This document shows, piece after piece, positions 16,559 to 21,144 of a stretch of DNA of 21,292 nucleotides. The notes below the pieces were generated by a model. The model was not told where the DNA came from. It worked only from the letters and a program-made list of their open reading frames with translations, and searched no databases. The translations under genes and the position numbers were made by a program. The DNA lies in the UHGV virus genome UHGV-0273766, one strand, 5' to 3'. The DNA comes from a virus. The stretch's first letter is position 1. Each line of letters starts with the position of its first letter.

Positions 16559-16738
16559 TACAATCGTTGCGGGTGCTTGAGGCTATCTGCTTCAGGTATT
16601 ACCCGAAAAGCAGATAGAAGAAAGCCCCAGATAACATTACGCGTCCTGCAAGACGCTTAACATTAATCTGAGGCTCAATCTATGAACGGCAAATCTAGGT
16701 TAGCCTCTTACGTGCCGAAAGGCAAGGAGAAGCAGGCT

Positions 16739-16894
16739 ATGAAGCAGCAAAAGGCGATGTTAATCGCCCTGATCGTCATCTGTTTAACCGTCATAGTGAC
16801 GGCACTGGTAACGAGGAAAGACCTCTGCGAGTTACGAATCCGAACCGGCCAGACGGAGGTCGCTGTCTTCACAGTTTACGAACCTGAGGAGTAA
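16739..16894 (+). CDS. hok: Hok/Gef family type I toxin (51 aa), HokD/RelF-like
   Basis: MKQQKAMLIALIVICLTVIVTALVTRKDLCELRIRTGQTEVAVFTVYEPEE is a canonical Hok/Gef sequence; AAGGAGA Shine-Dalgarno; in-frame upstream extension from 16682 (Mok-like leader); GC-rich hairpin at 16903-16924 downstream. Confidence 0.85.
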   Translation: MKQQKAMLIALIVICLTVIVTALVTRKDLCELRIRTGQTEVAVFTVYEPEE

Positions 16895-17341: not shown

Positions 17342-18388
17342 GTGCGAGTATTACTTCGACCTGTTCTGGTACCGGAACTCGGGCTGGTGATCGTTAAGCC
17401 GGGCCGTGAATCCATGCCGGTATTCCACAATACCCGGGTACTGGTGGAGCCGGAACCGAAAAGCATGCGTAATCTGCCGTCCGGGGGCGTTCCTGCCGTT
17501 CGCCAGCCGCTGGTGGAAGACAAAACATTGCTGCCGTTTTTCAGTAACGCACGGGTGATTCGTGCTGCTGGTGGTGCTGGTGCATTGTCTGACTGGCTGT
17601 TGCGCCATATTAAATCCTGCCAGTGGCCACACGGCGATTATCATCACAGCGAAACCGTCATTCACCGTTATGGTACCGGCGCAATGGTGTTGTGCTGGCA
17701 CTGCGACAACCAGTTGCGTGACCAGACCTCCGAATCACTTGAGCAACTTGCTCACCAAAACTTGTCAGCATGGATGATTGACGTCATTCGTCACGCAATG
17801 AATGGCACACAGGAGCGGGAATTATCGCTGGCTGAATTATCTTGGTGGGCAACCATAAATAACGTAGCGGACGCACTACCGGAGACGGTATTACGTCGTT
17901 CGCTGGGATTGCGCGCGGAAAAAATTAGCTCAGTATACCGCGAGAGCGACATCGTGCCGGGAGAGCAGAGTGCCACCAGCATGCTGAAGCAGCGCACAAA
18001 AAATATTGCGCCGCTGCTTCACGCCCACCAGCAAAACCCGCCACAGGAAAAGACGGTGGTCAGCATTGCCGTTGAGCCGGAGTCTCCGGAATCTTTCATG
18101 AAACGACCTAAACGTCGCCGCTGGCTTAACGAGAAATACACGCGCTGGGTTAAGACACAGCCGTGTGCATGTTGTGGAAAGCCTGCTGATGATCCCCACC
18201 ACTTGATAGGCCACGGTCAGGGTGGAATGGGTACTAAAGCGCATGACCTCTTTGTGTTGCCTTTGTGCAGAAAACATCACGACGAGCTGCATGCGGATAC
18301 CGTGGCATTTGAAGAGAAGTATGGCTCCCAGCTGGAGCTGATATTTCGTTTTATCGATCGTGCGCTGGCAATAGGCGTGCTGGCCTGA
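17342..18388 (+). CDS. DUF968-family protein (YdfU-like) with C-terminal Cys/His HNH-like motif (348 aa; GTG start, uncertain)
   Basis: C-terminal CACCGK...DDPHHL...GGMGTKAHDLFVLPLCRKHHDELH is characteristic of DUF968 proteins found in lambdoid nin regions; order hok, small ORF, DUF968, Q mirrors the Qin prophage. Confidence 0.7.
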   Translation: MRVLLRPVLVPELGLVIVKPGRESMPVFHNTRVLVEPEPKSMRNLPSGGVPAVRQPLVEDKTLLPFFSNARVIRAAGGAGALSDWLLRHIKSCQWPHGDYHHSETVIHRYGTGAMVLCWHCDNQLRDQTSESLEQLAHQNLSAWMIDVIRHAMNGTQERELSLAELSWWATINNVADALPETVLRRSLGLRAEKISSVYRESDIVPGEQSATSMLKQRTKNIAPLLHAHQQNPPQEKTVVSIAVEPESPESFMKRPKRRRWLNEKYTRWVKTQPCACCGKPADDPHHLIGHGQGGMGTKAHDLFVLPLCRKHHDELHADTVAFEEKYGSQLELIFRFIDRALAIGVLA

Positions 18389-18405
18389 TTTTGTGGAGAA
18401 AGTTG

Positions 18406-18777
18406 ATGCGTGATATTCAAATGGTTCTTGAACGTTGGGGGGCATGGGTGGCAAATAATCACGAGGATGTGGAATGGTCATCTGTTGCTGCAGGTTTTAA
18501 GGGATTAATTCCTTCGAAAGTAAAATCCCGCCCGCAATGTAGCGATGACGATGGCCTGATCATTAGCTCTGCGATGACAGTTCTTAAGAAAAAGGAACCG
18601 TATCAATACGAATTACTGGAAATGTATTATGTGTATGGGGTTACATTACGGGTGTTGGGGGTAAAACTGGGGATATCACTTAATCAGGTTGTTATCAGAC
18701 TGCAGAAAGCTGAAGGGTTTATTGACGGTTGTCTGGCAATGTTGGGGGTATCTTTAGAAATTGATTGTTACATATAG
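18406..18777 (+). CDS. Antitermination protein Q-like (phage 82-type Q family, 123 aa)
   Basis: N-terminus MRDIQMVLERWGAWVANNHEDVEWSS matches my recollection of short Q proteins annotated in E. coli prophages; GGAG about 7 nt upstream; followed by an AT-rich intergenic region as expected for a late promoter and qut site. Confidence 0.65.
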   Translation: MRDIQMVLERWGAWVANNHEDVEWSSVAAGFKGLIPSKVKSRPQCSDDDGLIISSAMTVLKKKEPYQYELLEMYYVYGVTLRVLGVKLGISLNQVVIRLQKAEGFIDGCLAMLGVSLEIDCYI

Positions 18778-18852
18778 TAATAAATTCAATCAAAGTAAAT
18801 AATCATATTTTATTATAACCTCCTGATGATACCTGTTCATTGGGAGGTTATT

Positions 18853-19470
18853 ATGGATAAAAATGTAGAGCATGTATTAGTTGATGCAATTGAAAATAAG
18901 CAATCTTTAACAGTCGTTTACTTAGGAGGGAGCCAGCCCGGAACATTAAGGAATATTTCTCCGATTAGTATAAATGGGGATAAATTGCGGGCAAGATGCC
19001 ATAGTTCTGGAGCAGTAAAGGTTTTCAATCTTGGGAAAATACAGTTACCCAGTGACTCCTGCGCGGTATCTATGCACTATGGAGATTTAGAAGTTAAAGC
19101 TTATGAGACGATGCAGAGCGTAAATGACAACTTTCATGCCCTTTATCCTGAAGGACGATGGGGTGTTGATTTTAATGAGCATCGCTTTGCTTTATTTGAT
19201 TTTTTTAAAAACGGGAAACGAAAAAAAACGGCATTTATGGCAATTGAGTTCAGGGAAAGAGATGAAGAGAAAATAATAACAGGTGTAACAATTGATATTG
19301 GTATATCTGGAACAGTGATTTCTGAGAAGTCCCGAATCCCAAAAAGACGACCATGGGTAGTGGTTGGTCCCGAACACGGAGAATACAGTACTTATTCAAC
19401 TTTGGACAAGGCTGCTACAGCGTTTTTTGAGAGGCTTTCGTTGATAGCATCCGGCCTGGAAGATAATTGA
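18853..19470 (+). CDS. Hypothetical protein (205 aa), AT-rich moron immediately downstream of Q; possible WYL-like N-terminal domain
   Basis: GGGAGG Shine-Dalgarno 5 nt before the ATG; AT-rich by eye; N-terminal pattern VVYLGG...R.ISPISI....LRARCH.....KVFNLGKI resembles WYL/Sm-like folds; followed by a rho-independent terminator. Confidence 0.6.
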   Translation: MDKNVEHVLVDAIENKQSLTVVYLGGSQPGTLRNISPISINGDKLRARCHSSGAVKVFNLGKIQLPSDSCAVSMHYGDLEVKAYETMQSVNDNFHALYPEGRWGVDFNEHRFALFDFFKNGKRKKTAFMAIEFRERDEEKIITGVTIDIGISGTVISEKSRIPKRRPWVVVGPEHGEYSTYSTLDKAATAFFERLSLIASGLEDN

Positions 19471-19600
19471 TTTTATGTTTGGTATTCAGAGTTCGCCGTG
19501 CTTAAGAAAGTCAAGATTCTAAAAATACTGAATGAGCTACTTGTGTTATAACAAAAATGCTATTAGTGTGTTAAGAGTGGTTACTTCGCCACACAACTTA

Positions 19601-19626
19601 AACCCGCCACTGAGCGGGTTTTTTGT
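19601..19626 (+). terminator. Rho-independent terminator downstream of the moron
   Basis: Stem AACCCGC / GCGGGTT (7 bp), loop CACTGA, followed by a T-run. Confidence 0.75.
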
Positions 19627-19746
19627 ACCTGTAAACTTGGTGCAGTACAGTAAACACGCTGGTGGTCGTGAATACTGACTTTTTATCTTGCTGGCTTTTT
19701 AGACAAGAGTTATTGGTATGTCATGTTAACCAGAAGGGAAAAAGAC

Positions 19747-19944
19747 ATGCTAAAACAGCAAGATATGACCGAAACCGCCAGAGTGGTGTTTAATGAATTG
19801 AGCGTCACCGAACCGGCGACAGTCGGGGAGATTGCGCAGAATACTTACCTTTCACGCGAACGCTGCCAGTTAATACTGACCCAGCTGGTTATGGCGGGTC
19901 TGGCAGACTATCAGTTCGGTTGTTACAGACGCCTTCCGCAGTGA
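19747..19944 (+). CDS. Small hypothetical protein (65 aa), possible winged-helix DNA-binding protein
   Basis: AAGGGA about 9 nt upstream of the second ATG; TVGEIAQNTYLSRERCQLILTQLVMAGLA resembles a recognition helix / wing; a terminator hairpin overlaps its stop codon. Confidence 0.4.
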   Translation: MLKQQDMTETARVVFNELSVTEPATVGEIAQNTYLSRERCQLILTQLVMAGLADYQFGCYRRLPQ

Positions 19945-19957
19945 AGGCTTTTTTATT
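19931..19957 (+). terminator. Rho-independent terminator overlapping the stop of the small ORF
   Basis: Stem GCCTTC / GAAGGC, loop CGCAGT, followed by TTTTTTATTT. Confidence 0.65.
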
Positions 19958-20094: not shown

Positions 20095-21144
20095 ATGCTT
20101 AATACTGTAAAAATATCCAGTTGTGAGTTAATCAACGCCGACTGCCTGGAATTTATCCGGTCGTTACCCGAAAATTCTGTTGACCTGATAGTCACGGACC
20201 CGCCGTACTTTAAAGTGAAGCCTGAGGGCTGGGATAACCAGTGGAAGGGCGACGATGATTACCTGAAGTGGCTGGACCAGTGTCTGGCGCAGTTCTGGCG
20301 GGTGCTGAAACCTGCCGGAAGTCTTTACCTGTTCTGTGGTCATCGCCTGGCATCTGATATCGAAATCATGATGCGTGAACGCTTCAGTGTGCTGAACCAT
20401 ATTATCTGGGCGAAGCCGTCCGGACGCTGGAACGGATGCAACAAGGAAAGCCTGCGGGCGTATTTCCCCGCCACAGAGCGCATTCTGTTCGCGGAACATT
20501 ATCAGGGGCCGTATCGTCCGAAAGATGCCGGGTATGCGGCGAAGGGCAGTGCACTGAAACAGCATGTGATGGCCCCGCTGATTTCTTACTTTCGTGATGC
20601 GCGCGCGGCCCTGGGGATAACGGCAAAACAGATTGCAGATGCCACAGGAAAGAAAAACATGGTGTCGCACTGGTTCAGTGCCAGTCAGTGGCAGCTACCG
20701 AACGAAAGCGATTATCTGAAATTACAGTCGCTGTTTGCCCGGGTGGCAGAAGAGAAACATCAGCGCGGTGAACTGGAAAAGCCCCACCACCAGCTGGTGG
20801 ATACGTATACGTCACTGAACCGGCAGTATGTGGAGCTGCAGAGTGAATATAAGCATCTGCGGCGGTATTTTGGTGTGACGGCGCAGGTGCCGTACACGGA
20901 TGTGTGGACACATAAACCGGTGCAGTTCTATCCCGGGAAACATCCGTGCGAAAAACCGGCAGAAATGCTGCAGCAGATAATCAGCGCAAGCAGTCGTCCG
21001 GGTGACCTGGTTGCAGATTTTTTTATGGGCTCAGGTTCAACGGTAAAAGCGGCACTGGCGCTCGGGCGTCGTGCGATTGGCGTTGAGCTGGAGACCGGAC
21101 GTTTTGAGCAGACAGTCAGGGAAGTTCAGGATTTAATCGTTTGA
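20095..21144 (+). CDS. Orphan DNA methyltransferase, beta-class amino-methyltransferase (N6-adenine or N4-cytosine), 349 aa
   Basis: Motif IV TDPPY near the N-terminus and motif I FFMGSGST near the C-terminus (beta-class order); no restriction endonuclease gene adjacent. Confidence 0.85.
   Translation: MLNTVKISSCELINADCLEFIRSLPENSVDLIVTDPPYFKVKPEGWDNQWKGDDDYLKWLDQCLAQFWRVLKPAGSLYLFCGHRLASDIEIMMRERFSVLNHIIWAKPSGRWNGCNKESLRAYFPATERILFAEHYQGPYRPKDAGYAAKGSALKQHVMAPLISYFRDARAALGITAKQIADATGKKNMVSHWFSASQWQLPNESDYLKLQSLFARVAEEKHQRGELEKPHHQLVDTYTSLNRQYVELQSEYKHLRRYFGVTAQVPYTDVWTHKPVQFYPGKHPCEKPAEMLQQIISASSRPGDLVADFFMGSGSTVKAALALGRRAIGVELETGRFEQTVREVQDLIV

Follow-up and report, generated by a model that had tools for sequence, protein, structure and literature searches.

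The Locus and Its Gene

The stretch of DNA considered here, the UHGV virus genome UHGV-0273766, was analyzed over its full length of 21,292 nucleotides (the window) and originates from, or is identical to, an Escherichia coli lambdoid prophage. Directly after its gene for the antiterminator Q, where the window is at its most AT-rich, lies a gene encoding a protein of 205 amino acids (aa), which is the subject of this analysis. The protein consists of a WYL domain followed by a domain of no assigned family, the start of its message is folded into a stable RNA hairpin, and its gene occupies an exchangeable slot in the phage genome. The features of this region are as follows.

18391–18777, + strand: antiterminator Q gene, Q21 family (Pfam PF06530, Phage_antitermQ, E 1.5e-47), left border of the cargo slot
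18778–18852, + strand: AT-rich spacer from Q to the 205-aa gene, guanine plus cytosine (GC) content 0.25
18811–18816, + strand: TATTAT, a speculative -10 element from a reading of the sequence, with a poor -35 and not called by the promoter scan
18815–18851, + strand: RNA hairpin with a 15-bp stem (ATAACCTCCTGATGA / TCATTGGGAGGTTAT) and a 7-nt loop, sequestering the Shine-Dalgarno sequence
18843–18847, + strand: Shine-Dalgarno sequence GGAGG, 5 nt 5' of the ATG at 18853
18853–19470, + strand: 205-aa gene, stand-alone WYL protein (MDKNVEHV...), RefSeq WP_000360285.1, phrog_8498
18874–19044, + strand: WYL (Sm-like beta-barrel) domain, residues 8–64, carrying Y23, S27, R33, K56 and F58
19105–19467, + strand: C-terminal alpha-beta5-alpha domain, residues 85–205, without family assignment
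19543–19552, no strand assigned: perfect, Q-type-specific palindrome TGTTATAACA, a candidate Q-binding element
19561–19566, + strand: TATTAG, candidate -10 of the late promoter pR' placed by alignment, followed by the invariant leader GTTAAGAGTGGTTACTTCGCCACACA
19600–19624, + strand: intrinsic terminator AAACCCGCCACTGAGCGGGTTTTTT of the phage backbone, probably tR', with an 8-bp stem and then a U-run

The 849-bp region at 18778–19626 has exact (100%) matches in E. coli S88 and in no fewer than 20 further complete genomes, and it is present in 51 of 5426 complete E. coli genomes (coverage at least 80%). The 205-aa gene is rare in the species and was horizontally acquired. The region has a GC content of 0.379 against 0.475 for the whole window, about 2.6 standard deviations below, and ranks 20th lowest among 2045 windows of 849 bp (standard deviation 0.037), with the spacer between Q and the gene falling to 0.253. 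At third codon positions the GC content of the gene is 0.32, compared to 0.57–0.60 in the flanking DUF968 and methyltransferase genes. An original prediction, made from the sequence alone, had described an AT-rich single-gene cassette directly after Q, and these figures bear it out, the GC content proving deviant once computed.

The open reading frame (ORF) called mechanically starts at 18826, and the GGAGG favors the ATG at 18853, in keeping with the predicted 205-aa ORF preceded by a Shine-Dalgarno sequence. Comparison with a 73%-identical allele gives a ratio of nonsynonymous to synonymous substitution (dN/dS) of 0.22; the gene is real and under purifying selection. Its product matches phrog_8498, a family without known function, at E 2.9e-126 over positions 1–205 of 205.

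A WYL Domain Without a DNA-Binding Head

Many phage-defense operons, and responses to DNA damage, are controlled by transcription factors in which a WYL domain serves as the switch that senses single-stranded DNA (ssDNA). A WYL-like pattern had been noticed at the N-terminus of the 205-aa protein from its letters alone. The Pfam WYL model (PF13280) matches residues 8–64 at E 0.0085 with 16.5 bits, and because this lies below the gathering cut-off of 21.8 bits, a single-sequence search leaves the identity of the domain open. The family supplies the stronger signal. Among 113 aligned relatives, 40 match Pfam WYL at E ≤0.01 (best 4.8e-8), and a family profile run against the PDB picks out DriD in its WYL domain (E 9e-5) and BrxR (E 6e-3). 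In the profile alignment the family motif YhGGSqpGavReIaP stands opposite DriD YEGGSTPGRTREVTP, so that Y23, S27 and R33, conserved in 100%, 91% and 100% of the family, align with DriD Y168, S172 and R178. In DriD these three residues hydrogen-bond the phosphates of ssDNA and R204 and W206 contact its nucleotides (PMC9186387), and in CapW the equivalent Ser/Arg set binds ssDNA (PMC11662680). K56 (100% conserved) and F58 (95%) would match DriD R204 and W206 by motif and strand order, a correspondence that we drew ourselves rather than took from an alignment tool.

Residues 8–64 are predicted to form an Sm/SH3-like five-stranded beta-barrel that can be superposed on solved WYL domains, with the ssDNA-contact residues, 91–100% conserved in the family, on the barrel face; ssDNA binding itself is predicted. 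Taken together, the family-level and structural evidence upholds the WYL-like N-terminus, and the domain is best regarded as a genuine WYL domain. The domain call is already known, since RefSeq names WP_000360285.1 a “WYL domain-containing protein.”

The remainder of the protein is less familiar. In the predicted model one helix (residues 3–14) runs straight into the WYL barrel, a low-confidence linker follows (residues 69–81 in the first model, 69–78 in the second), and residues 87–204 comprise five strands between a first helix and a long final one. Confidence in the prediction is high for the N-terminal helix and both domains and low for an insertion at residues ~134–167, in which ~88–96% of members show alignment gaps at 142–146, 152 and 157. 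No helix-turn-helix (HTH) was matched in Pfam or NCBIfam, and the winged HTH (wHTH) of WYL regulators such as DriD, PafBC, CapW and BrxR is missing; lacking it at the N-terminus, the protein cannot act as a transcription factor. The C-terminal half finds no family in Pfam, NCBIfam, PHROGs, PADLOC, PDB sequences or BFVD, Pfam searches over the same half of the 113 aligned relatives return no family that covers it, a BFVD fold search yields nothing at E ≤0.001, and phmmer against the PDB gives 0 matches. The earlier description of a protein without an HTH and with an unassigned C-terminal part therefore stands, and neither profile nor fold searches place the protein in a housekeeping or structural family.

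In architecture the protein is similar to DriD from Caulobacter crescentus (PDB 7tzv, 7u02, 8tp8) reduced to its C-terminal sensor portion of WYL and WCX (dimerization) domains, without the DNA-binding head. The chains of the DriD C-terminal construct are ~195–198 aa compared to 205 aa, the order of helix, WYL barrel and second domain is shared, and the counterparts of Y168/S172/R178 and, by motif order, of R204/W206 are in place. The differences are equally clear. The 205-aa protein has no N-terminal wHTH, the canonical WYL/NYL strand motif reads K-L-R-A-R, and the C-terminal domain has no detectable sequence similarity to WCX, with which its structural overlap is partial and of high root-mean-square deviation. 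DriD is a chromosomal regulator beside its target operon, whereas the 205-aa gene is mobile cargo. CapW and BrxR (PDB 7tb6, 9c5g, 7qfz, 7t8k) are wHTH-WYL-WCX repressors of cyclic oligonucleotide-based antiphage signaling systems (CBASS), bacteriophage exclusion (BREX) and other defense operons; unlike them, the 205-aa protein lacks the HTH, the linker helices and the RWHVR motif, and its gene adjoins no cognate defense operon and has no conserved neighbor.

A Large, Mostly Stand-Alone Family

The extent of the family emerged only from an exhaustive profile search. That search recovered 954 representative clusters (clustered at 50% identity) at E ≤1e-3, 191 of them at E ≤1e-30, and among the best 150 of the 954 nearly all members are 187–226 aa long and matched over their full length. 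Single-sequence searches came back nearly empty, with 9 clusters from a word-indexed protein search and two phage records plus one plasmid from tblastn. The relatives come from Gammaproteobacteria, Alphaproteobacteria, marine and other metagenomes, a Pseudoalteromonas P2-like phage and one cyanophage.

The genes next to family members are highly diverse. Around 78 distinct members, 121 immediately neighboring genes fall into 64 Pfam families, none of which occurs more than three times (integrase reaches three), indicating that the family has no conserved partner and nearly always stands alone. Several contexts concern lysogeny. At two loci (L061 and L062) the family gene lies 9–17 bp 3' of a short cI-like repressor gene (138–152 aa) on the same strand, an Enterobacter phage-plasmid (L064) carries an operon in the order C-repressor, membrane protein, family member fused to BRCT, integrase, and at L065 the gene sits between an integrase gene and a LexA-like repressor gene. 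Others lie elsewhere: between terminase and Rha genes (L063, with a related copy upstream of Rha in L067) and, in another relative, after the tail genes. In Leucothrix (L004) the gene is found in a defense island, flanked by AAA_15/21 ATPase, FRG, GmrSD_N, RiboL-PSP HEPN and NERD genes. About ten neighbors match PADLOC models, including a TIR effector, PD-DExK, HNH, a methyltransferase, mad3, PDC-S35, PDC-S48 and HEC-07. For the 205-aa protein itself PADLOC-DB 2.0 names no known system, giving weak matches to generic Cas-associated WYL models (E 1.4e-3 and 6.6e-3). A defense role for the gene, as the original prediction had proposed, is plausible from these family contexts.

Family members are occasionally fused to other segments, namely an N-terminal BRCT domain, a SWIM-like zinc finger, zinc ribbons or transmembrane segments, and the fusions examined add no recognizable enzyme domain. 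The transmembrane fusions carry either two N-terminal transmembrane helices or a C-terminal transmembrane tail. The fusion loci are L064:6725-7591, L113:677-1723, L110:205-1179, L121:191-1213, L080:3599-5581 and P0090. One family protein of 660 aa contains two WYL copies on either side of an unrelated middle region.

A Hairpin Over the Ribosome Binding Site

The original prediction had credited the gene with a strong Shine-Dalgarno sequence and contained no hairpin; the sequence is present, and it is buried. The hairpin at 18815–18851 folds with a free energy of -23.0 kcal/mol (z -5.7), which none of 200 shuffled sequences matched, and in its extended fold it sequesters the AUG as well. Pair-preserving changes (C-G to U.G, U.G to U-A and G.U to G-C) maintain the hairpin in natural variants and in the 73% allele, and its G.U wobbles pair solely in RNA of the + strand. 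No + strand intrinsic terminator was found between Q and the ORF, and thus early-right transcripts should read into the gene.

The TATTAT at 18811–18816 overlaps this structure, and speculatively, a transcript starting ~7 nt 3' of it would lack the anti-Shine-Dalgarno arm, freeing the ribosome binding site. The site reads TATAAT in 12 IMG/VR copies (L014 and 11 other loci) and TACAGT in the 73% allele. The T-to-A change that yields TATAAT, which overlaps the anti-Shine-Dalgarno arm, also extends the stem to 19 uninterrupted pairs, and the promoter, the hairpin or both could benefit. A further natural variant can be seen in IMG/VR UViG_2563366940_000006 (L028:7238-7990), where an IS1 insertion sequence with InsA and InsB ORFs lies in the hairpin loop, at the equivalent of window position ~18830. 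This IS1 parts the anti-Shine-Dalgarno arm from the Shine-Dalgarno sequence in an otherwise identical copy of the gene; de-repressed translation would be the expected outcome, and the element could also supply a promoter reading outward.

The minus strand of the same segment, 18839 to 18812, holds a promoter-like TGAACA-16-TATAAT (10 of 12 matches) aimed at the 3' end of Q. This site could yield an antisense RNA to Q, and it is also within chance expectation for AT-rich DNA. Phage lambda has an antisense-to-Q promoter, paQ.

The Cargo Slot and the Probable Late Control Region

Comparison of related prophages indicates that the ORF is exchangeable cargo between the stop codon of Q and a conserved leader-plus-terminator block. 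The block, which consists of GTTAAGAGTGGTTACTTCGCCACACA(A/G)CTTAAA followed by the terminator, stands 3' of the cargo at the opening of the late region, and together with the adjacent small gene it occurs in 2991 of 5426 complete E. coli genomes (55%), also behind other Q families. In the prophage of E. coli 20AR0300 (L071) the slot is empty, the block lying ~20 bp 3' of the Q stop. In mEp460_4F5, Stx2a_1447, SfIV and E. coli D1 the slot is filled by unrelated minus-strand gene pairs:

L002 (mEp460), 1469–2930, - strand: alternative slot cargo
L003 (Stx2a_1447), 1362–2967, - strand: alternative slot cargo
L070 (SfIV), 629–2051, - strand: alternative slot cargo
L072 (E. coli D1), 2341–3878, - strand: alternative slot cargo

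The pairs of mEp460 and Stx2a_1447 each comprise a soluble protein of 308–357 aa and a multi-transmembrane protein of ~180 aa. A Kiwa-like identity had been suspected and was dropped, as the pairs tested (mEp460, Stx2a_1447, SfIV) have no PADLOC or Pfam match; the alternative pairs are candidate two-gene systems, so far uncharacterized. The block with its TrmB-like winged-helix gene (phrog_331) reaches up to 8 copies per genome, and in the loci examined it is followed by an N6-adenine methyltransferase gene and stands upstream of tRNA genes, stx and the lysis region; in the window this arrangement covers 19552–19950 and 20095–21144.

The terminator that ends the block lies in the 252-bp spacer 3' of the 205-aa ORF and is conserved in mEp460, SfII, SfIV and Stx2a phages. 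Because the block with its terminator also occurs without the ORF, it belongs to the phage backbone. The canonical terminator first ascribed to the cassette is thus a real one, with its 8-bp stem and U-run, but not the cassette's own, and it is probably tR'. An Rfam search gives nothing above the gathering score. A minus-strand match at 19592–19728 to the enterobacterial small RNA STnc130 reaches 30 bits (E 0.05), short of the gathering score of 55, and involves the terminator hairpin read the other way.

Q proteins are loaded at pR' through a Q-binding element placed between its -35 and its -10; the initially transcribed region then carries a sigma-dependent pause element, with a terminator beyond it (10.1101/651190; PMC6606751), and the element bound by Q21 also lies between -35 and -10 (PMC6606751). 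A comparable layout may be present here. A palindrome just 5' of the block varies in sequence with the Q type and keeps its position; it reads TGTTATAACA in the 73% allele and the window, GCGTACGC in Stx2a_1447 and mEp460, and GCGGTCCGC in L071 and SfIV. These palindromes are perfect or near-perfect (L002 ~2985–2995, L003 ~2985–2995, L071 3991–4000, L070 2183–2192). Q21 itself uses direct repeats, from which a palindromic element would differ. After the palindrome comes a -10-like hexamer that reads TATTAG, TATTAT, TATTGT, TATGTC or TAGATT across phages, and the invariant leader contains a second -10-like sequence, AAGAGT at 19573–19578, which retains A2 and T6 of the -10 hexamer. From this alignment it is likely that pR' lies at ~19535–19570 and tR' at 19600–19624, which would put the ORF upstream of pR'. 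A scan for consensus sigma-70 promoters found none on the + strand 5' of the ORF or 5' of the terminator, in the window or in SfIV, so the placements of pR' and of a promoter of the gene's own are drawn from comparative anatomy.

Proposed Function

The reading that we favor, by a modest margin of belief, is that the gene is a selected, horizontally acquired single-gene cargo whose product joins a stand-alone DriD-type WYL sensor to a family-specific C-terminal alpha/beta domain and works in the following way. The protein would bind short ssDNA through the Y23/S27/R33/K56/F58 platform, with the interdomain cleft, as in DriD, the probable site of the ligand. Such ligands are the fragments that arise from DNA damage, RecBCD processing or phage replication. 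Since the protein has neither an effector domain nor an HTH, its output would have to be ligand sequestration, ligand-dependent oligomerization or partner binding. Transcription would come from read-through of the early-right operon, together with Q, from a weak promoter belonging to the gene, or from both, and not from the Q-dependent late promoter, since the ORF lies upstream of the presumed pR'/tR'. On read-through mRNA the hairpin would block translation. Binding of short ssDNA via the WYL platform is the best-supported molecular function that we infer from these sequences.

What the cell or phage gains from such a protein is a more speculative matter. The leading possibility, put forward tentatively, is that lysogens express the protein as an ssDNA-triggered immunity or exclusion factor and that its translation is shut off while the prophage itself grows lytically. 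The lean toward protection of the lysogen has three grounds, namely that relatives occur in lysogeny operons and defense islands, that other phages fill the slot with self-contained cassettes, and that the hairpin would silence an ssDNA-triggered protein on the prophage's own lytic read-through transcript. Stated more broadly, and still with a little less than even confidence, the 205-aa protein may represent a new class of single-protein, ssDNA-triggered conflict factor that pairs a WYL sensor with an undescribed alpha/beta output domain, and that acts either as an abortive-infection or exclusion protein that the hairpin must silence while the prophage replicates or as a phage decoy blinding CapW/BrxR defenses to the ssDNA alarm.

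Several points weigh against the favored reading. The protein's own Pfam WYL score is under the curated cut-off (16.5 against 21.8 bits), it has no PADLOC defense-system match, and no effector domain is recognizable, which is unusual for single-gene defense. The neighborhood sample is small and without statistical control. There is no consensus sigma-70 promoter before the ORF or the terminator, and the -35 of the candidate pR' is poor. The gene points the same way as the early lytic operon, an arrangement equally suited to counter-defense, and both ssDNA binding and the phenotype stand as predictions.

Alternative Explanations

Counter-defense is the alternative that survives best, although it is unlikely in the form of a decoy, in which an HTH-less phage copy of a host ssDNA sensor would soak up the short ssDNA that de-represses CapW-CBASS and BrxR-BREX during prophage induction or phage replication. 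The gene has the orientation of Q with no terminator between them, and thus it would be transcribed with the delayed-early genes; the ssDNA-contact residues are kept and the output domain is absent. CapW-driven induction of CBASS by ssDNA limits lambda prophage induction within 15–30 min (PMC11662680), and WYL regulators are de-repressed by restricted infection (PMC13622015). Yet a stoichiometric sponge needs abundance, and here the Shine-Dalgarno sequence and AUG are locked in the hairpin. The relatives lie in lysogeny operons and a chromosomal defense island, not in early or anti-defense clusters, and the other occupants of the slot are self-contained minus-strand cassettes. The literature search returned no description of a phage WYL decoy.

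The original prediction had equated the site with the one at which stx is carried, making the gene a Q-dependent late-operon cargo, or moron, transcribed from pR' right after Q. The gene does resemble stx and other lambdoid morons in being an AT-rich, exchangeable accessory next to the Q antiterminator; it shares the strand of Q, stands directly 3' of it and has a terminator behind it, and in classical lambdoid cassettes pR' is found close behind Q (10.1101/651190). The anatomy of related phages makes this rather improbable. With the slot empty in L071, the block stands ~20 bp 3' of the Q stop, and Stx2a_1447 has just 21 bp between Q and 1.6 kb of antisense cargo. The Q-type-specific palindromes lie just 5' of the block, downstream of the cargo, and the spacer between Q and the ORF is not conserved in other phages of the same Q family. 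In SfIV the block is ~150 bp 5' of the holin gene, and in Stx2a_1447 stx2 lies ~1.9 kb 3' of the block, beyond the methylase and three tRNA genes. The ORF is 5' of the block and stx2 is 3' of it, so the slot is not the stx position; the ORF probably does not lie downstream of pR' and tR', the promoter being positioned by comparison. Since stx is found beyond the block, methylase and tRNA genes and the ORF precedes the block, late-promoter control of the gene is unlikely.

Less probable again is a DNA-damage sensor in the lysis-lysogeny decision or the SOS response, which would tune induction either as an antirepressor-like factor activated by ssDNA or by modulating RecA or SSB. This would fit the cI-like repressor genes 9–17 bp before the family gene at L061 and L062, the P2-like elements in which it lies between integrase and repressor genes or in a C-repressor-to-integrase operon, and the BRCT fusion of one relative. 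Across phages, however, the positions are unrelated (after Q, between terminase and Rha, after tail genes) and there is no conserved partner, from which it follows that the gene cannot depend on one phage-specific repressor. The similarities to PsiB and frataxin are at the level of generic topology.

A further alternative is an Sm/Hfq-like binder of single-stranded RNA (ssRNA) that acts post-transcriptionally, like WYL1, the accessory protein of Cas13d. This is very unlikely, given that the closest match in sequence and residues is DriD, which prefers ssDNA over ssRNA (PMC9186387), and that the matches to Hfq are limited to the bare barrel at 7–14% identity. WYL1 (PDB 6oaw) and Hfq/Sm proteins differ further in their partner domains, and the 205-aa gene has no context of clustered regularly interspaced short palindromic repeats (CRISPR). 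Finally, the absence of an HTH, the AT-richness and the prophage location would suit a decayed, functionless remnant of a wHTH-WYL-WCX regulator that lost its HTH, but this is effectively refuted by the dN/dS of 0.22 and by a family of 954 clusters, nearly all of the best 150 sharing the full-length ~190–205-aa form, with N-terminal helix and both domains confidently predicted.

Significance

The family retains the WYL sensor and drops the transcription-factor head, and since it does so in ~950 clusters and without a partner, a so far undescribed way of turning ssDNA sensing into an output is implied. If the role in lysogen defense is true, the 205-aa protein would be a new single-gene type of immunity; if the decoy is true, it would be the first phage counter-measure at the regulatory layer of defense, as far as the literature was searched. 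That search, covering HTH-less or phage-encoded WYL proteins and WP_000360285.1, found no characterization. Four elements appear to be undescribed: the headless sensor with a new C-terminal domain in a large stand-alone family, the conservation of the ssDNA-contact residues in it, the Shine-Dalgarno-sequestering hairpin and the definition of the Q-to-leader cargo slot. The variable slot between Q and the late leader block is now mapped in E. coli lambdoid prophages, Stx phages included, and it holds further uncharacterized cassettes.

Flanking Genes

The genes on either side of the region are as follows:

16682–16894: Hok/Gef toxin gene (Pfam 1.2e-21), upstream of the DUF968 gene
17342–18388: DUF968/HNH gene, upstream of the Q gene
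Downstream of the 252-bp spacer: small TrmB-like winged-helix gene (phrog_331), then the N6-adenine methyltransferase gene

The product of the Q gene is related to Q of phage 21 (PDB 6jnx/6p18, E 5e-10). At the junction of DUF968 and Q, three overlapping terminator-like hairpins are found at 18322–18387, just 5' of the Q start.

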